64,000 nt of DNA. Origin: Candidatus Binataceae bacterium. Its GTDB lineage: Bacteria; Desulfobacterota; Binatia; Binatales; Binataceae. The number at the start of each line of letters is the position of its first letter. Positions within the stretch are counted from its first letter, which is position 1. Both the position numbers and the translations under genes were made by a program. The stretch is taken from contig CAWBLQ010000004.1 in assembly GCA_963789715.1 (NCBI GenBank), forward strand, positions 286,367-350,366, in the 5' to 3' direction. This document shows, piece by piece, positions 1 through 7,301 of the stretch. The notes under the pieces are model-generated. The model saw nothing but the letters and a program-made list of their open reading frames with translations, was not told where the DNA came from and searched no databases.

Positions 1-1
1 A

Positions 2-400
2 ACTTCCGATTGGGGAAAGCAGGCCGCACAAAAGGCGAGCGTCGCCGATCCGCAAGCCGATGGCGCGATGTGCCTGAACTGTCATGCCACGGGCGCCGGC
101 GGCAACAATCCGCCGGATCCGAGCGAGGGAGTGTCATGCGAGGCGTGTCACGGGGCTGCGGCCGATTACGCGCCGAGAGACAAACACGGCGAGATTGGTA
201 ATGACCCGGCGAAGATGCAGGCGGCGGTGGCGCTGGGTCTGATCGACATGCGCAAGATGGACGTTCGCGAGCAGAATTGCCGCGGCTGTCACGTCGTGGA
301 TACCTCCAAGCGACCCTGCTATCGCGCGAGCGAGAAGCCCTTCGACGTCCACAACGATCAGAAGTTCAAACATTGGAGGGACAACATCCCGCCCATCTGA
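2..400 (+). CDS. Multiheme cytochrome c (c554-like), 5'-truncated by the window edge
   Basis: Frame is open from base 2 (TSDWGKQAAQKASVADPQADGAMCLNCH...). Three CxxCH motifs: CLNCH, CEACH (in EGVSCEACHG, typical of c554-like domains) and CRGCH. Stop TGA at 398-400. Confidence 0.8.
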   Translation, partial: TSDWGKQAAQKASVADPQADGAMCLNCHATGAGGNNPPDPSEGVSCEACHGAAADYAPRDKHGEIGNDPAKMQAAVALGLIDMRKMDVREQNCRGCHVVDTSKRPCYRASEKPFDVHNDQKFKHWRDNIPPI

Positions 401-474: not shown

Positions 475-3033
475 TCAGAAACCCTTTCGAGTCATGCGAA
501 TCCCCATCGACTTCATGAACGCTGTCGGCAACTCAAAGCCAATCATTACGAACACGAAGTCGTTCTCGATCTCAATCGGCTCCGTCAACTTTACTACGCC
601 GGGATCGGGTGCCTGGCCGGCCGAAGGGGGTGTCTCAGCCGCGCGCTCCTCGCGCGTGCGGCGTCTAAACAATGCGGTCAGCCGGGTGAAGAAGCCACGC
701 CGTGCGGGTGGTTGAGCCCGCTGGTCTGTCGTTTGCTGCTTGCGCGGCGTTCCTGCTCTCGGAGCCAGGACGACTTTGCCGGGCTTGATCTCCTTCACCT
801 CGCTCAACGGGTACAGAGTGATTTGGCCTCGCTGCTGCAGATCGCTGACCTTTACGGCGTTCTCAGGGGATGTCGGCGGACCGAGAGCCGCGTCGCGGAA
901 AGAGTAGGAGACGGTGTTGCGCAGCACGGGATTCGCAAGCAATTGCGTTGTTTCAGCGCCATTGTTTCCTCCACCAACGACAAGGATCCGCTTATCTTTG
1001 AACTCCTCGGGCTCGGACAGACTGTAAAAAACGCGATCGGCCGTTGCCCCCGGAACCGCCAGCTTGCGTGGCGTGCCACGCACGCCGATTGCCAAGACTA
1101 CGTAACGCGCTTTGAACCGTTTGCCCGACTGCGTTGCGATTTCAAACACTTCGCCCGTTCGAACTATGGCAGCAACCTCCTCACGCTCGTTGATCTCAAG
1201 CTCCATCTTACGGAGCATCTCCTCCCAATGTTCGACCAACGCTTCTTTCGTATTGTCGCCCTGCATGTAGAACGAGCCGTATTCATCCAGCTCGATCGGA
1301 GTGGCCTGAACAAACTTGCCGCGCGGATAGGTTCGTATCGTGCTCGCCGCCGTAGTCTTCTCCAGCGCCAAATATTTCAGCTCATTTGACTTTGCGGTCC
1401 ATGCCGCGCCGATTCCCGTCGGACCGCATCCAACTATCGCAACGTCGTAAACCCCCGGCTCAACCGCGGTCTTCTCATGGCGAATCGCATTGGCAATCGC
1501 CGTAATCACCTGACACCCCGAGCGCATGACAAAATTGATCGAGGACGTTCTTCCACTAGCTTCGCCGGCAACATAAACGCGGGATAGGTTGCTCTCGTAA
1601 GTGTCGTCGAGCGCGGGTATCTCCGGGGTTCGTTGCGGACCGGAATTCGAAACCACCTCGCGATGCGTTTCCACCGGCAGATAACGGAAATAACCTATTC
1701 CGATCAACGTCATCGTCGCGAGTGCGAGAATCGCGACCAACCACGGACGAAGAGTTACTCTTCGCAGCGCCAGGCTCAGCGATCCGTCGCGCAAGCCGTG
1801 CACCGAGATCGTGTAAGCCGCAAGTTGCAGAGCGGGGGGTTGATGAGGTCGAATCGTCGGCGCCTTGGACGGGAAGTCTTTGATCAGACTGCCACCTCGA
1901 TAGTACGAGTGGAACGCGTGGCAATCAGCACATGCGTTAAGAGTTTTCTCTCTCGGTAGCTCCAGCACCTCGACCTCAGCCGCCTCGGCGCGACTCGAGT
2001 TCATAACGCCATCGCGGTCTATTGACATCGCGACCTGCCCAGCAGACGTGCCCGGCTCGTGCGCGTGACAGCCAAAGCACTTCGCGATCTCATTGGTGTG
2101 CGAATCGCGCGGCTTTTCGCTTTCCTCGATATGCAGATGGCATCCGGCACACTCGGCGCGGAGATGGCCCGCGGAATGAGGCACAAAAATCGCGTTGATG
2201 GGACGGAAAATAACCGACTGAACAAACGGGATGGTTGCCGGCTCGGGAGGAGGGCTGACAGATTGGCTCGGCGCAACCGGCTGCACACTCGCGAGCTTCA
2301 AGTCTTCGTCCTGCCAACTCGAATGGCAGGTGCTGACCGTGCATCCAGCGGTTACTATCGCAAATTCTTCCGGCGTTTCATTCGATGGCGCGCTTACCAG
2401 ATGGCACGAACGGCAATTGAGATGTTGTCCCGAGCGATCGAGCACGCTGGCCAACTCCTCAGCCGACTTCACGGCAGCCTGCTTGCGTGCGCGAGATCGC
2501 ATCTTTTGCGCACTCTCCCTTGCTTCCCGCAAGTGTTTGAGTGCGTCTTCGAGATGTTCCTTGTGATTGAAGTCCTTGAGAAAATTCTGGAGCGGTTTCC
2601 AGCGAACCCGCAAGCTATGACCGTGCGAGCTGACGTCCTTTATCGAGTCATGCGCGTGACACCAGGCGCAATTTGTCCCGGACGTGGCAGCCAAATCCAC
2701 GTTGCGCCCCTGGTGATCGGTATGACAGGAAAGACACGCCAAGCGATCGTTGAGTCCGGCTATATGCTCGGCGGCGACGAGGCCGAAATCCTTGTCGTCA
2801 AGCTTGGCGTCGAAGTGTTCGTTTCGATCGATGTTCCCGTGACAATCGATGCATCCAGCGCTGGCCAATTGAACGCCCCGCCAAGGCTGATGGCAGGCGG
2901 CGCAATTGGCGCCGAACGGCTGATGACCTTCAAGGAGAGGGCCGGGCGAATAACTTCGATGAAACGAGAGCAGCGCCGCCAGAAGGGCGAGAGTGAATAT
3001 CCCGGCGACTATCAGTCGGGTCCGGCGATTCAT
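475..3033 (-). CDS. Multiheme cytochrome c fused via a transmembrane helix to a permuted FAD/NAD(P)H pyridine nucleotide-disulfide oxidoreductase (TrxB/YpdA-like), 852 aa
   Basis: Start moved from 3120 to the ATG at 3033, which forms an ATGA overlap with the upstream stop. N-terminal hydrophobic anchor (LIVAGIFTLALLAALLSF), 8 CxxCH plus 1 CxxxxCH, second TM (WLVAILALATMTLIGIGYF), then VYVAGE, YDVAIVGCGPTG (FAD), VVLAIG and ILVVGGGNNG (NAD(P)H). Confidence 0.85.
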   Translation of the reverse strand: MNRRTRLIVAGIFTLALLAALLSFHRSYSPGPLLEGHQPFGANCAACHQPWRGVQLASAGCIDCHGNIDRNEHFDAKLDDKDFGLVAAEHIAGLNDRLACLSCHTDHQGRNVDLAATSGTNCAWCHAHDSIKDVSSHGHSLRVRWKPLQNFLKDFNHKEHLEDALKHLREARESAQKMRSRARKQAAVKSAEELASVLDRSGQHLNCRSCHLVSAPSNETPEEFAIVTAGCTVSTCHSSWQDEDLKLASVQPVAPSQSVSPPPEPATIPFVQSVIFRPINAIFVPHSAGHLRAECAGCHLHIEESEKPRDSHTNEIAKCFGCHAHEPGTSAGQVAMSIDRDGVMNSSRAEAAEVEVLELPREKTLNACADCHAFHSYYRGGSLIKDFPSKAPTIRPHQPPALQLAAYTISVHGLRDGSLSLALRRVTLRPWLVAILALATMTLIGIGYFRYLPVETHREVVSNSGPQRTPEIPALDDTYESNLSRVYVAGEASGRTSSINFVMRSGCQVITAIANAIRHEKTAVEPGVYDVAIVGCGPTGIGAAWTAKSNELKYLALEKTTAASTIRTYPRGKFVQATPIELDEYGSFYMQGDNTKEALVEHWEEMLRKMELEINEREEVAAIVRTGEVFEIATQSGKRFKARYVVLAIGVRGTPRKLAVPGATADRVFYSLSEPEEFKDKRILVVGGGNNGAETTQLLANPVLRNTVSYSFRDAALGPPTSPENAVKVSDLQQRGQITLYPLSEVKEIKPGKVVLAPRAGTPRKQQTTDQRAQPPARRGFFTRLTALFRRRTREERAAETPPSAGQAPDPGVVKLTEPIEIENDFVFVMIGFELPTAFMKSMGIRMTRKGF

Positions 3034-3965
3034 ACTCCGCCGAAATACAGAACCCCTGCGACGTGAAATATCAGAAGCGCGAATGTCAGCACGGATAAGA
3101 GTATGTGAAGATCCAGCCAACCCGTGCTGAGATGGATATTGAAAGAGTTATGATCGAGATTCACCTTGCGGGCCGCCAATGCCAGCAGTTCGCGATAGGT
3201 TTTCTCGTCACCCGATTCGGCGGTCTTTTCTGCCGCCGCGGCGCAGGCTTGCTGACCGGCGTCGATTCCCTTTACCGTCGCCATCAACAGCGTCAACCGC
3301 GACGCCGATCGATCGCTGAGAAGTATAGGCTTGATGTAACTGATGTATGCTTTGATAAGTCTGTCGTCGTGCCCAAGGATTTTCTCCTCCGCCTCGCGGT
3401 ACACCGCACTTACCCTGGACTCGACGTCCTCCAGCCGAACCTCGTGCTCGGCGAGTCGCGTCATTGAGTGTGGAAGTTTGTCCTGCAGTATCGCGCCAAA
3501 GATTCCGCTGACAAAAAGCAACACCACCAGCGTTGCGAGCACTACCTCAAGCGGGCTCATCGCGGCAGTGCTTACGTGCCACGACAACGGAAGCAACGCG
3601 AGCATGCCGAGCGTCAAATGAAACGCCCGCCATGTTTCGAGCCGATCCAGAATGACCAGCCGGCGCTGAATCGCGGCGGGAAAGATCTTTCCGGTGAACT
3701 GCAACACGCGGACGGAGAACCAGATGTTGCGCTTGCGGACGCTATACCAGGCGATCGCGATGAAGCTGGCCAGCGCAATCGAGCCCGACCAATATTCTCC
3801 AATCTCACGTCCAAACGTCGACGTAGCTGCGTTAAGGCCGGCAGCCGCGAGCAAGCAGATGGTCAGCCACAGCCAGGTACGGACGGGCAGCGCGCGCCCT
3901 CGGCGAGCGCGAACAGCCAAGGTTGGCCGGTTTGCGAGGTCGGCTCGAGCCTCTTGAGTAGCCAT
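3030..3965 (-). CDS. Membrane protein, ferric-reductase-like / di-heme cytochrome b type
   Basis: Several hydrophobic segments. Two helices each carry H-x13-H (FHLTLGMLALLPLSWH and LHILLSVLTFALLIFH). Sits 3 nt after the upstream stop and overlaps the downstream start (ATGA). Confidence 0.7.
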   Translation of the reverse strand: MATQEARADLANRPTLAVRARRGRALPVRTWLWLTICLLAAAGLNAATSTFGREIGEYWSGSIALASFIAIAWYSVRKRNIWFSVRVLQFTGKIFPAAIQRRLVILDRLETWRAFHLTLGMLALLPLSWHVSTAAMSPLEVVLATLVVLLFVSGIFGAILQDKLPHSMTRLAEHEVRLEDVESRVSAVYREAEEKILGHDDRLIKAYISYIKPILLSDRSASRLTLLMATVKGIDAGQQACAAAAEKTAESGDEKTYRELLALAARKVNLDHNSFNIHLSTGWLDLHILLSVLTFALLIFHVAGVLYFGGV

Positions 3966-3968
3966 CGG

Positions 3969-5639
3969 CTAGTCGTTCGAACCAATGACTTTTCTAACGC
4001 GATCGTGTCCGGAGATTGCGGCTAGCGTCGCACCCGGGAACAAATCGGAAGGCCTGATTCTCATCGCGGAGCCTGTCGGGCAAGCGTGAACGCATCCCAT
4101 GAACGGGAGCCCGTCGCAGAGATCGCACTTTATGGGATAAGCGGTGGGAATGTGCGTTGCGGCTTTTGGTCCGGATTCGGCGGTTGATTCGGACTGCTGC
4201 TCCGACGCTTGATTACGGCCGAGGATGCGCTGCCAAAGACTGGGCGCGAGCCGTTCGTGGCCGCCCTGCTCGTGACTGGCGAAGATCCGGCTCCATAGAT
4301 TGTGCTCGACGGCGTGCGAAGGAACCGGGTAAGGCCGGAAGAATTCTCGACCTAGAGTTTCGGCCTTTCGATCCTGCGCTGCGTCGAACTTGCCGGTCTC
4401 GATCATCGCGATGTTGTCGTAGGGACATGCGATTGCGCAATTACCGCATCCGATGCACATGTCATACTGGAAGTAGATCTCGCCTTCCGGTCTGCGTTTG
4501 ATCGCACCCGTCGGACAGCTATTCATGCACTTGGGATCGTCGCAATGGCGGCAGGCAGCCGGGATCAGATATTTTCCGAGCTGGATTCCGGTCCTGATGA
4601 GGCGGCTGGTGCCGTGAAGGGACTCGCATGCCGTCACGCAGTTGTCGCATTTGACGCACAGGTCCAGGTCCATCACCAACAACGCGTCGGCTTGAATCAC
4701 TCCGAACTGGCCGCTGTCCTTCAGAATCGCCGAAAGCTCCGGCGTGAGCTGTTTCTCGGCCTCGAGGCGGCGTTCGATCGTCGCGTGCACCTGCGCTTCG
4801 GCTTCGGGAAACTGTCGGATGAGCGCCGCGACGTCTTCGCCGCGAATCCTGACCACTTCGCACTTGCCCGCGGTCAAAACACTGGCGTTGCGGACGTGGC
4901 CGCTGTCCACCAGCGACATCTCGCCGAAATATTCGCCCGCGCGCCGATACGCCAGCACGCGCCGCGTGCCGTCCTCGCGTTCGCGGACGACCTGGACGTA
5001 GCCGTCGCGGACAACGTAGAGACTGTCGCCGGCCTCGCCCTGCTTGAGCAGCACAATCCCGCGCTGGTCGTAGTGTTTGATCTCGCAATTCGCAATCAGG
5101 CGATCGATGAACTCGCCCTGGACGCCCTTGAACAGCTCGAGCTCGCTTACCATTACCCGGATGGCGCGCTCGCGAAATCGCGCGGAGAGAATCGCGCGCG
5201 CCTCATCGTTGGTCTCGATGAATTTGAGGCAATGGCGGGGAAGATAGAAAATCTCGGTGTCCTCGGCAGCAACGATATCCAGCGTGCGCGGCAGTCCGCC
5301 CAGGGCGCCCATTTCACCGTAGAACTCGCCCGCTCCGCGCGCTCCGACCTTGGTCCTGACTGGGCCGTTGATTTCGAACAGGTCGACGCTACCCTTCAGG
5401 ATGAAGCAGAGATCGAGTTCATATTCGCCCTTGGCGCAGATGAGCTCGCCGCGAGGAAACCGTGCGACGCGCATCGCAGCCTCGGAGTCATAGGCCCTCA
5501 GGAACGCGTCGTGTTCCTCGGCGGAGAAGCGGCTGAAGAGACCGAATGCGGAAAGCTCGGACCACAATTCGATACCTGATCGTCGGATCGGTATTCCAAG
5601 AGAGTCCACAAGGCCACCGCGTATCGTGCCAACCCCCAT
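3969..5639 (-). CDS. Tandem cyclic-nucleotide-binding domains fused to an NrfC/DmsB-like 4x[4Fe-4S] ferredoxin
   Basis: Two CAP/cNMP folds with phosphate-binding cassettes GEFYGEMGALGGLPRT and GEYFGEMSLVDSGHVRNA. Cys motifs CVKCDNCVTAC, CRHCDDPKCMNSCP, CIGCGNCAIACP and CDLCDGLPFMGCVHACP. Confidence 0.88.
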   Translation of the reverse strand: MGVGTIRGGLVDSLGIPIRRSGIELWSELSAFGLFSRFSAEEHDAFLRAYDSEAAMRVARFPRGELICAKGEYELDLCFILKGSVDLFEINGPVRTKVGARGAGEFYGEMGALGGLPRTLDIVAAEDTEIFYLPRHCLKFIETNDEARAILSARFRERAIRVMVSELELFKGVQGEFIDRLIANCEIKHYDQRGIVLLKQGEAGDSLYVVRDGYVQVVREREDGTRRVLAYRRAGEYFGEMSLVDSGHVRNASVLTAGKCEVVRIRGEDVAALIRQFPEAEAQVHATIERRLEAEKQLTPELSAILKDSGQFGVIQADALLVMDLDLCVKCDNCVTACESLHGTSRLIRTGIQLGKYLIPAACRHCDDPKCMNSCPTGAIKRRPEGEIYFQYDMCIGCGNCAIACPYDNIAMIETGKFDAAQDRKAETLGREFFRPYPVPSHAVEHNLWSRIFASHEQGGHERLAPSLWQRILGRNQASEQQSESTAESGPKAATHIPTAYPIKCDLCDGLPFMGCVHACPTGSAMRIRPSDLFPGATLAAISGHDRVRKVIGSND

Positions 5640-5747
5640 GTGTCAATAGTCGTCGACAAAAGCGCAGCGCGGAGCCGCTCAACTGGCTTCTGAGTGGCGC
5701 GTAGCTGGAGTAGGCTCGGGGACGCCCGTTGGCCGAGGGTGCGACTC

Positions 5748-7301
5748 ATGGCGCGACAACCGGAACAGCAGTCAGCAGGCACGCCGCCGCCGAAATTCGC
5801 CGATACCGTCGTCATCGGTGGCGGCACCGCGGGAGCGGCGGTCGCGGCTCTTCTAGCGGAACATTCGGGGCAGCATGTGCTGCTGCTGGAAGCCGGTCCG
5901 GACTACGGTTCGTTCGCCGCCGGACGATGGCCGGCAGAACTCACCGATGCGGGCGCGATACCGACCACGCACGACTGGGGCTACGACAGCGGGAAGCAGT
6001 ACGCGCCGCGGGTAGTCACTTACGAGCGCGCTCGTGTAATCGGCGGATGCTCGTCGCATAACGGATGCGCCGCGATTTGGGGCAGCCGCCTCGATTACGA
6101 CGGATGGGCCGCGCTCGGAAATCCGGGATGGTCCACGGACGGACTGCGCCCGCTGTTCCGCGCTGCCTCCGAGCGTCTGCGGGTTAGAATTCCGGAGCCG
6201 GAGGAGATCACTCCTTTCCAGCACGCCTCGTTAGACGCCGCGGCCGAAGCCGGAATCCCGCGTGTCGCTGATCTTAACAATCTCGATGAGAACCTGGGCA
6301 TGGCGCCGAGTCCTGTGAATATCGCCAACGGCGTCCGCTGGAACACCGCCTTCGCCTATCTCGATCCGGTCCGCGGGCGATCGAACCTGACGATCGTTGG
6401 CGACTCCGTGTGCGACCGCCTCGAAATCAGGTCAGGACGAGTGAACGCGGTCGTCGTAGCCGGACGCGAGGGTCCGGTCCGCCTCGAAGTGGGCCGCATT
6501 ATCGTGGCTGCTGGCACCTACGGCTCTCCCGCGATTCTTCTTCGCTCCGGGATTGGCGATCCCTCCGAACTTCGCTCGGCCGCAATCACACCTGAGCACG
6601 ACCTGCCCGGAGTCGGCCACAACCTGCACGACCATCCGCGGGTCTCGCTCAGCTACGAGGGCACGCGCGAACTCGAAGAGATGATGGCCGCATTCGCGCG
6701 CGACCACTGGATGCCGGAGGAGCAGACGATCGCCAAGGCGCGGTCCTCGCGATGTACGCGGGGATTTGATCTGCACATCTATCCGGTTGGCGGACCCGAC
6801 CGCACGACTGAAACCGGTTGGCGATGGACACTCGAAGTGGCGTGCATGACGCCGCGCTCGCGGGGTGCGCTAAGCCTGACGAGCGGGAGCAGCGCCGTGC
6901 CGCCCATCATCGACCATAGTTACTTATCCGATTCCGAGGACGAAGATTTGCGCGTGCTTGCCGACGGCGTCGCGATCGCCCGGGAGATAGCCTCGAAACC
7001 TGCGCTGTCCCGACTTGTGGGCACGGAGCTTTCACCGGGGAGCGCGATCGCGACCCGCGCCGGCGTCGAGGCGTTCATCAGGTCCAATTGCCTCCACTAC
7101 TACCATCCGGTGGGGACATGCAGGATGGGCCCGGCCAGCGATCGGTCCGCGGTGGTCGACTCGCGCGGAAGAATTCACGGGCTCGACAACGCTTACGTCG
7201 CCGACGCGTCGATCATGCCCGTGATACCGCGCGCCAACACCAACCTCCCGGCGCTGGTCGTCGGTGAACGAATCGCACGCTGGCTGCTTGAACTTGGCTA
7301 G
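5748..7301 (+). CDS. GMC family oxidoreductase (choline dehydrogenase-like)
   Basis: VVIGGGTAG, LLLEAG, RARVIGGCSSHNG, AAGTYGSPAILLRSGIG, GVGHNLHDH, YYHPVGTCRMG, ADASIMP and ANTNLP. Start placed at the ATG at 5748. Confidence 0.92.
   Translation: MARQPEQQSAGTPPPKFADTVVIGGGTAGAAVAALLAEHSGQHVLLLEAGPDYGSFAAGRWPAELTDAGAIPTTHDWGYDSGKQYAPRVVTYERARVIGGCSSHNGCAAIWGSRLDYDGWAALGNPGWSTDGLRPLFRAASERLRVRIPEPEEITPFQHASLDAAAEAGIPRVADLNNLDENLGMAPSPVNIANGVRWNTAFAYLDPVRGRSNLTIVGDSVCDRLEIRSGRVNAVVVAGREGPVRLEVGRIIVAAGTYGSPAILLRSGIGDPSELRSAAITPEHDLPGVGHNLHDHPRVSLSYEGTRELEEMMAAFARDHWMPEEQTIAKARSSRCTRGFDLHIYPVGGPDRTTETGWRWTLEVACMTPRSRGALSLTSGSSAVPPIIDHSYLSDSEDEDLRVLADGVAIAREIASKPALSRLVGTELSPGSAIATRAGVEAFIRSNCLHYYHPVGTCRMGPASDRSAVVDSRGRIHGLDNAYVADASIMPVIPRANTNLPALVVGERIARWLLELG

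Follow-up and report, generated by a model that had tools for sequence, protein, structure and literature searches.

The 64,000-nucleotide stretch of a Binataceae genome analyzed here (the window) encodes, near one end, a protein that joins a multiheme cytochrome c to a thioredoxin-reductase-like flavoprotein, and this flavoprotein is circularly permuted relative to thioredoxin reductase (TrxB) and YpdA. From the N terminus, the 852-residue fusion protein consists of a short Arg-rich tail, a transmembrane helix (TM1), nine c-heme motifs, a second transmembrane helix (TM2), and a flavoprotein region of ~400 residues. We consider it likely that the C-terminal 390 residues form a cytoplasmic flavoprotein, tethered by TM2 to the nine hemes in the periplasm, and that they feed a transmembrane electron path encoded by three genes. 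Residue numbers refer to the longest open reading frame (ORF), 475..3120 on the minus strand (P0001, 881 amino acids from a TTG), unless the 852-residue numbering is stated; residue 1 of the domain and its model is residue 490. The actual start is M30 of P0001, where the homologues begin, and the public gene call (P0002, 852 amino acids) is 100% identical.

The GD-like motif VYVAGE (residues 515-520, window 1561-1578) sits 44 residues ahead of the flavin adenine dinucleotide (FAD)-binding GxGxxG (GCGPTG, residues 564-569), and the protein terminates 20 residues beyond VFVMIG (residues 856-861). We aligned a 26-sequence family profile to 27 canonical TrxB sequences from genomes of the same phylum using hhalign. 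The core (domain residues 63-392, residues 552-881) maps to TrxB columns 1-260 with an E-value of 4.2e-36, at which point the query ends, while the N-terminal segment alone maps to TrxB 260-310 (E 3.4e-5); the only other suboptimal match of the segment is noise (E 0.31). The two alignments abut at a single TrxB column (260), in the loop that leads into the moved piece in TrxB, which is the signature of a circular permutation. Comparison with solved structures gives the same order. Against Staphylococcus aureus YpdA (7A7B), phmmer places residues 561-739 on chain positions 7-186 and residues 850-878 on 238-266, and the earlier residues 506-531 (DTYESNLSRVYVAGE...) on 278-304. In an hmmsearch of the PDB with the 26-member profile, segment positions 110-153 fall on residues ~273-327 of YpdA and of two TrxR-like ferredoxin-NADP+ reductase (FNR)/TrxR chains, in each case directly after the stretch that the profile's end covers. 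The database-wide E-values of these PDB placements are weak (58 to 2200 for phmmer and hmmsearch), so the significance of the segment placement is taken from the pairwise hhalign comparison. The Pfam Pyr_redox_3 match begins at residue 562 and covers only profile positions 2-242 of 305.

The AlphaFold2 (AF2) model of residues 490-881 has a mean predicted local distance difference test score (pLDDT) of 78, with most of the core above 85. The moved segment adopts a strand, a second strand, and a long helix at a pLDDT of ~88-94, with one dip to ~62 near model residues 31-40. The top Foldseek matches of this model are YpdA structures, with TM-scores of 0.70-0.74 (normalized to target length). VIA-align superimposes model residues 66-392 on YpdA 1-269 of 323 (Z 22.0, root-mean-square deviation (RMSD) 2.6, 266 residues aligned), leaving over the last 50 residues of YpdA and the first 65 of the model. 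Across the YpdA structures the Z-scores are 22.0-22.2 (RMSD 2.3-2.6, 263-266 residues aligned), ~3 Z units above the TrxRs (Z 17-19). A first-pass annotation of this DNA had placed the C-terminal FAD motif ahead of the first GxGxxG, likened the domain to YpdA-type enzymes, and named AF2 modeling with Foldseek as the check; hhalign, VIA-align, and motif order all agree with that placement, the sequential superposition stops at YpdA residue 269, and YpdA is the nearest solved relative. Within the moved segment, the P of IPALD, the G and E of VYVAGE, and I, N, M, S, and G residues are invariant or nearly so in 26-52 homologues, placing them among the best-conserved positions of the whole protein.

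The sequence motifs give the domain the appearance of an active FAD/NAD(P)H enzyme. Both dinucleotide-binding motifs of the two-Rossmann FAD/NAD(P)H fold, GCGPTG and GGGNNG, are present, and 52 homologues show little or no variation in either GxGxxG, in the Glu at the end of β2, in the G and R of AIGVRG, or in the G and E of the GD-like motif. The redox CxxC, which had already been reported missing, is indeed absent: residues 481-881 contain C536 and C565 as their only cysteines, and hhalign sets YSL-SEPE against the CATCD of TrxB. The Thr of GCGPTG occupies the position of Cys14 in Firmicute YpdA (GGGPCG), a residue whose role is disputed. The lack of redox-active cysteines points to an NAD(P)H dehydrogenase or electron-transferase rather than a disulfide reductase. 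A preference for NADPH is plausible, as hhalign sets the YSFRD Arg opposite the second Arg of TrxB HRRD and places no acidic residue at the strand end.

The protein falls below the curated cut-offs of the two nearest named families. It scores 56.3 bits against the TrxB model TIGR01292 (cut-off 343), lacks the CxxC, and has a non-canonical order; a separate, true TrxB (395 bits) is encoded elsewhere in the genome. The YpdA/Bdr model TIGR04018 is the best NCBIfam match, yet the score is 124.3 bits against a cut-off of 339.9. YpdA/Bdr (PDB 7A76, 7A7B, 7APR) resembles our domain in its two-Rossmann FAD/NADPH fold and lack of CxxC (Z 22, 24% identity over 266 residues). In contrast, the window protein is permuted, lies far under the family cut-off, lacks Cys14, is tethered to the membrane and fused to a multiheme domain, and has Fe-S and heme proteins rather than thiols as partners. 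TrxB and the TrxR-type FNRs (PDB 3LZW, 2ZBW, 3AB1) have the superfamily and cofactor motifs in common with it. As in the FNR branch, its TrxR fold has no redox disulfide, and it would presumably pass single electrons to an Fe-S partner; Fe-S fusions or neighbors are pervasive in the permuted family. Apart from the permutation at TrxB column 260, the window protein differs from these enzymes in having no C-terminal extension with a flavin-stacking aromatic residue. Its C-terminal-equivalent helix instead runs into the 8-residue linker to β1, since the old C terminus is joined to the old N terminus.

The permutation is the rule in a large and widespread family and not a peculiarity of this gene. 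An exhaustive HMMER search with residues 490-881 against 1.84 billion representatives clustered at 50% identity returned 2470 matches at E ≤1e-3 and 262 at E ≤1e-30. Using separate hidden Markov models (HMMs) for segment and core, the segment precedes the core in 137 of the best 150 representatives and the canonical order is found in none. The other 13 look like fragments, mostly truncated at the N terminus, and TrxB controls give the canonical order in the same test. Natural circular permutations are, to our knowledge, rare in the two-dinucleotide-binding flavoprotein superfamily. Family members come from Deltaproteobacteria-labelled metagenome-assembled genomes (MAGs), Methylomirabilota, Armatimonadota, and Binataceae, and carry no public names beyond "NAD(P)-binding domain-containing protein", "thioredoxin reductase", "FHA domain-containing protein", and "hypothetical".

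Four further architectures recur: a transmembrane helix, two [4Fe-4S] clusters, and the flavoprotein (~440 residues); the flavoprotein followed by a polytopic membrane Fe-S domain (~680 residues); a cyclic nucleotide (cNMP)-binding region, Fe-S domain, flavoprotein, and membrane domain (~970 residues); and two to three FHA domains, a transmembrane helix, 7-10 hemes, a second helix, an Fe-S domain, and the flavoprotein (1000-1400 residues). The ~440-residue form (for example P0158) is 32-35% identical to the window protein over the whole domain, including the moved segment. In the window, however, the Fe-S domain resides on a separate cNMP-binding protein and the N terminus of the flavoprotein is joined through TM2 to the nine-heme domain, predicted to be periplasmic. 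Four proteins of the longest type (P0141, P0142, P0168, and P0216, one of them from Methylomirabilota) carry two to three FHA domains, a transmembrane helix, 6-11 CxxCH motifs, a second helix, two [4Fe-4S] clusters, and the permuted flavoprotein, placing the entry, exit, and phospho-Thr reader of a putative conduit on one polypeptide.

The full heme-fused architecture of the window gene occurs in >200 proteins of 740-900 residues with 41-80% identity, and all 47 recovered GTDB loci of this form are from Binataceae-type MAGs. At E ≤1e-50 its distribution is patchy: it is present in 6 of 15 sampled genomes of its own family, including only 2 of 7 from its own genus, and absent from all 106 genomes that belong to other families in the class. 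Our literature search, which covered a single library, found no paper on a permuted flavoprotein of the TrxR/YpdA branch or on a multiheme-TrxR fusion. What is new is the direct joining of a permuted flavoprotein to a multiheme domain predicted to be periplasmic, the Fe-S part having moved to a cNMP-binding subunit. The fold is known; this variant of it is unpublished, and its arrangement is new.

The heme half of the protein has the features of an exported multiheme cytochrome c: nine heme motifs, an N-terminal anchor, and maturation genes of the Ccm type (CcmF/CcmC-like) in the genome. In the 52 homologues the eight CxxCH motifs are invariant, the CxxxxCH is at least 90% conserved, and several further His residues are invariant. 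A Pfam Cytochrom_c3_2 match exceeds its cut-off, and a weaker MtrC-like match falls just under its own. The N-terminal part was also considered as a NapC/NirT/NrfH quinol dehydrogenase and rejected, with no PF03264 match down to E 0.1; an NrfH-like match to residues 322-402 is weak (18 bits against a cut-off of 134, E 0.0019).

Two hydrophobic helices bracket the heme motifs, as the first-pass annotation had described, and TM2 is strongly hydrophobic in 52 of 52 homologues. The usable content of the full-length AF2 model is these two helices, with no relative placement of the domains. The predicted topology, with the hemes outside and the flavin domain inside, has good indirect support. The hemes would lie outside because c-type heme attachment requires export and Ccm genes are present, and the Arg-rich tail (MNRRTR) ahead of TM1 is consistent with this, with a mean of 2.0 Lys and Arg against 0.06 Asp and Glu before TM1 across homologues. 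The flavin domain would be cytoplasmic because NAD(P)H is, as are the cNMP, FHA, and Fe-S modules joined to it in relatives; modules for cNMP, Fe-S clusters, or NAD(P)H inherently belong to the cytoplasm. The plan of helix, hemes, and helix recurs in unrelated architectures, with FHA domains in front and Fe-S domain and flavoprotein behind.

The fusion gene is the last of three (Table 1). Its ATG overlaps the TGA stop of the upstream gene as ATGA (window 3030-3033), and this upstream gene, for a membrane protein with five transmembrane helices, starts 3 nt past the stop of an Fe-S protein gene (window 3963-3971). Given this overlap and gap, the three genes form a tight operon, and their translation looks coupled. 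The order of cNMP/Fe-S gene, ~300-residue membrane protein gene, and fusion gene is kept in 8 of 8 Binataceae loci examined. In one Binataceae MAG the cNMP/Fe-S and membrane genes form a single 817-residue ORF (L016:4357-6810), and the same Fe-S/IMP fusion was noted in an Oceanospirillum PCC4 cluster by He et al. (PMC5566968). Orthologues of the fusion gene in two long-read MAGs (L001:6550-9173 and L046:6537-9061) are broken into two ORFs by an apparent frameshift, probably an assembly error rather than decay.

The Fe-S protein may bear an imprint of the flavoprotein. In ~970-residue fusions (P0143, P0183, P0223, and others), which match both sides of its Fe-S domain, Cys motifs I-III precede the permuted flavoprotein and motif IV follows it, so that the flavoprotein is nested within the four-motif domain. 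At this exact site the window protein has a 100-residue low-complexity spacer (residues 406-504, window 4128-4424), which looks like a domain-excision scar or a docking loop. The membrane protein matches the membrane domains that P0229 and P0236 carry C-terminal to the flavoprotein. It also carries the complete signature of the 'IMP' of PCC3/PCC4 clusters, which was described as five transmembrane helices with SGxxG on TM4 and WX3HX13H on TM3 and TM5 and read as a di-heme cytochrome b (PMC5566968): the protein is ~300 residues long with five helices, SGxxG, and both WX3HX13H motifs. All four transmembrane His residues are kept in 47-49 of 49 sequences, in which W112/H116/H130, S153/G154/G157, and W283/H287/H301 are at least 92% conserved. 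If the Arg-rich N terminus of this protein is cytoplasmic, TM3 and TM5 would both run from inside to outside, with each His pair at one membrane depth.

Table 1 Features of the fusion gene and its two operon partners (residues of the fusion protein in P0001 numbering; partner residues in their own numbering)
Feature	Residues	Window position	Strand	Description
Whole gene, multiheme cytochrome c / TM / permuted flavoprotein fusion		475..3033	-	852 aa; ATG 3033-3031, stop 475-477
TM1 / signal anchor	36-54	2959..3015	-	Hydropathy 2.3; AF2 helix 2-23 (852-numbering)
Predicted periplasmic nine-heme domain	73-401	1918..2904	-	Eight CxxCH and one CxxxxCH (CTVSTCH)
TM2, link between heme domain and flavoprotein	455-480	1681..1758	-	Hydropathy 1.8-2.0; AF2 helix 431-451 (852-numbering)
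Permuted segment	501-549	1474..1620	-	Strand, GD-like VYVAGE, long helix; equals C-terminal ~50 residues of TrxB/YpdA
Short linker	550-557	1450..1473	-	Joins canonical C and N termini; model helix 39-59, strand 68-74
Flavoprotein core	552-881	478..1467	-	Equals TrxB 1-260 / YpdA 1-269
Core motif, FAD GxGxxG		1414-1431	-	
Core motif, AIGVRG		1075-1092	-	
Core motif, NAD(P)H GGGNNG		958-975	-	
Core motif, YSFRD		892-906	-	
Core motif, VFVMIG		538-555	-	
Clade-specific insert	787-841	598..762	-	~55 residues; pLDDT <50; basic amphipathic stretch RRGFFTRLTALFRRR
Membrane partner gene		3030..3965	-	311 aa, five TM; probable di-heme b 'IMP'
Membrane partner motifs	W112-x3-H116-x13-H130; S153-G-x2-G157; W283-x3-H287-x13-H301			On TM3, TM4, and TM5, respectively
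Fe-S partner gene		3969..5639	-	556 aa; two cNMP-binding domains and DmsB/NrfC-type four-motif Fe-S domain
Fe-S partner Cys motifs	328-338, 363-375, 395-405, 505-520			

We propose that NAD(P)H would reduce the FAD of the tethered domain in the cytoplasm, from which electrons would pass first to the cNMP-binding subunit with its four Fe-S clusters and then to the two b hemes of the five-helix IMP-type subunit. The b hemes would then reduce the nine c hemes on the flavoprotein's own chain, outside, and these in turn a periplasmic acceptor. Such a path would bypass the quinone pool, and cyclic nucleotide binding may gate it. Outward flow would be favored by both the redox span and the membrane potential. 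The repeated fusion of flavoprotein, Fe-S, and IMP domains in single chains argues for one continuous path, and the relatives in which the permuted domain is fused to two [4Fe-4S] clusters or lies between motifs III and IV of the Fe-S domain support an electron-transfer role.

Several points weigh against this path. The packing of the moved segment on the FAD rests on pLDDT and alignments, and the full-length AF2 model is poor (mean pLDDT 64.7, predicted TM-score 0.40, heme domain <50) and does not indicate sidedness. Lys and Arg counts across homologues are equal on either side of TM2; with this neutral charge the positive-inside rule, informative for TM1, gives no help there. The case for the direction of flow is purely thermodynamic. 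In the 64-kb window the tetraheme gene that ends at position 400 is the only other ORF with at least two CxxCH motifs, and no porin turned up, although no HMM search was aimed at porins. We found no experiment on any family member in the literature, and He et al. propose that IMP is quinone-linked (PMC5566968), in which case no NAD(P)H route would be needed.

A quinone-linked conduit, in which the flavoprotein is a side input or sensor rather than the main entry, is the rival that survives best, and we judge it unlikely but deserving of serious attention. A quinone-active cytochrome b role was proposed for IMP (He et al. 2017, PMC5566968) and, for a similar nonaheme cytochrome, a link to quinones of the NapC/CymA kind (Ferrigenium preprint, bioRxiv 10.64898/2026.01.22.701106), and the weak NrfH-like match (E 0.0019) would fit such a link. 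The absence of a NapC/NirT Pfam match down to E 0.1 counts against this rival, as do the recurrent single-chain fusions of flavoprotein, Fe-S domain, and IMP, which argue for one continuous path. It is improbable that the same wire runs in reverse, with periplasmic donors (Fe(II), reduced humics, other cytochromes) reducing NAD(P)+. TrxR-type FNRs are reversible, which favors this possibility. Fe(II) oxidizers also carry PCC3/PCC4 clusters (PMC5566968). However, inward flow to the -320 mV couple would have to work against the membrane potential as well as the redox gradient, the operon has no energy-coupling module, and the Binataceae MAGs are of soil origin rather than from niches known for Fe(II) oxidizers.

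YpdA/Bdr supplies both the nearest solved structures and the top NCBIfam match, which would suit a membrane-tethered YpdA/TrxR-like reductase of low-molecular-weight thiols or protein disulfides. This is very doubtful given the low score (124 bits against 340), the missing CxxC, and the Thr at the Cys14 position, while across the wider family the only nearby Cys is variously A, S, G, or C and Fe-S fusions are pervasive. Periplasmic heme-flavin single chains exist, and with the neutral charge bias of TM2 they raise the prospect of a flavin domain on the same side as the hemes, as in the Shewanella flavocytochrome c Fcc3, with TM2 not spanning the membrane. The strictly conserved NAD(P)H-binding motif, for a cytoplasmic substrate, together with a TM2 hydropathy of ~1.8-2.0 in all homologues and the joining of the domain to Fe-S, cNMP, and FHA modules in relatives, leaves this arrangement scarcely credible. 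Finally, an artefact, whether a chimeric ORF from mis-assembly or a flavoprotein that has been truncated or has decayed, might be argued from the frameshifted L001 and L046 loci but is refuted by the >200 full-architecture homologues at 41-80% identity from many samples, the invariant motifs, and the confident domain model.

The NAD(P)H-fed path has partial counterparts among known systems. PCC3/PCC4 clusters (He, Barco, Emerson, Roden 2017, PMC5566968) share the IMP signature and a multiheme cytochrome in the cluster, and the PF13247 Fe-S gene just upstream of the window's membrane protein gene has its counterpart in PCC4 subgroup II; a flavoprotein is not mentioned for these clusters. The window, in contrast, shows neither the porin nor the giant periplasmic/extracellular cytochromes of PCC3/PCC4, and places the NAD(P)H flavoprotein on the cytochrome chain itself. 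The NHC cluster of Ferrigenium straubiae, compared by description only, encodes a membrane-anchored nonaheme cytochrome with a cytosolic FHA domain, adjoining five-helix and [4Fe-4S] proteins (bioRxiv 10.64898/2026.01.22.701106). Both systems thus pair a nine-heme cytochrome bearing a cytosolic domain with such neighbors, whereas in Ferrigenium that domain is FHA, one transmembrane helix is reported, and no flavoprotein is described. NADPH oxidases and ferric reductases (NOX, FRE), built of an FRD di-heme b domain and a dehydrogenase, offer a functional parallel, with cytoplasmic NAD(P)H, a flavin, two stacked b hemes on HX13H helices, and an acceptor on the opposite side. Their dehydrogenase, however, has the unrelated FNR-like fold rather than a TrxR-like one, and the window system adds an Fe-S relay and c hemes and is divided among three subunits.

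Other features lie within or near the operon. The insert at residues 787-841 sits in a β-hairpin loop of the FAD domain and occurs only in homologues of at least ~60% full-length identity; in the distant homologues P0130 and P0144 this loop holds amphipathic inserts of another kind. The insert may contact the membrane surface or a partner. Convergent to the fusion gene, and ending 75 nt from its stop, is a gene for an exported, c554-like tetraheme cytochrome c of 212 residues (window 1-400, plus strand; whole gene L049:335-973). We rejected it as a conserved partner, since just two (L002 and L005) of the 37 related loci have a comparable gene. Divergent from the operon, an ORF at window 5694-7301 (plus strand, 535 residues) resembles a GMC-type FAD oxidoreductase, with GGGTAG as the dinucleotide-binding motif at its N terminus.

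More broadly, and tentatively, the permuted TrxR-like flavoprotein could be the cytoplasmic entry of widespread quinone-independent conduits regulated by cyclic nucleotides or FHA-read phosphorylation, the permutation having arisen or been kept for its adjacent termini. Permutation would bring the N and C termini together, with the attachment point beside the GD-motif strand. In YpdA, the loop after this strand (residues 295-301) gates NADPH binding, and we speculate that this arrangement may be why the permuted order is kept where the domain is nested or tethered. If this reading is correct, adjacent termini would allow the flavoprotein to be nested in a four-cluster ferredoxin or attached to a transmembrane helix, with the FAD beside the first cluster, and the Binataceae fusion of entry flavoprotein and exit hemes would be Rosetta-stone evidence for the circuit. 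The fusion physically links an NAD(P)H flavoprotein with a periplasmic multiheme wire, which suggests that PCC3/PCC4-like IMP modules exchange electrons with the pyridine-nucleotide pool rather than the quinone pool. In the Binataceae, abundant soil bacteria, a compact three-gene system makes this connection between IMP and metabolism testable.

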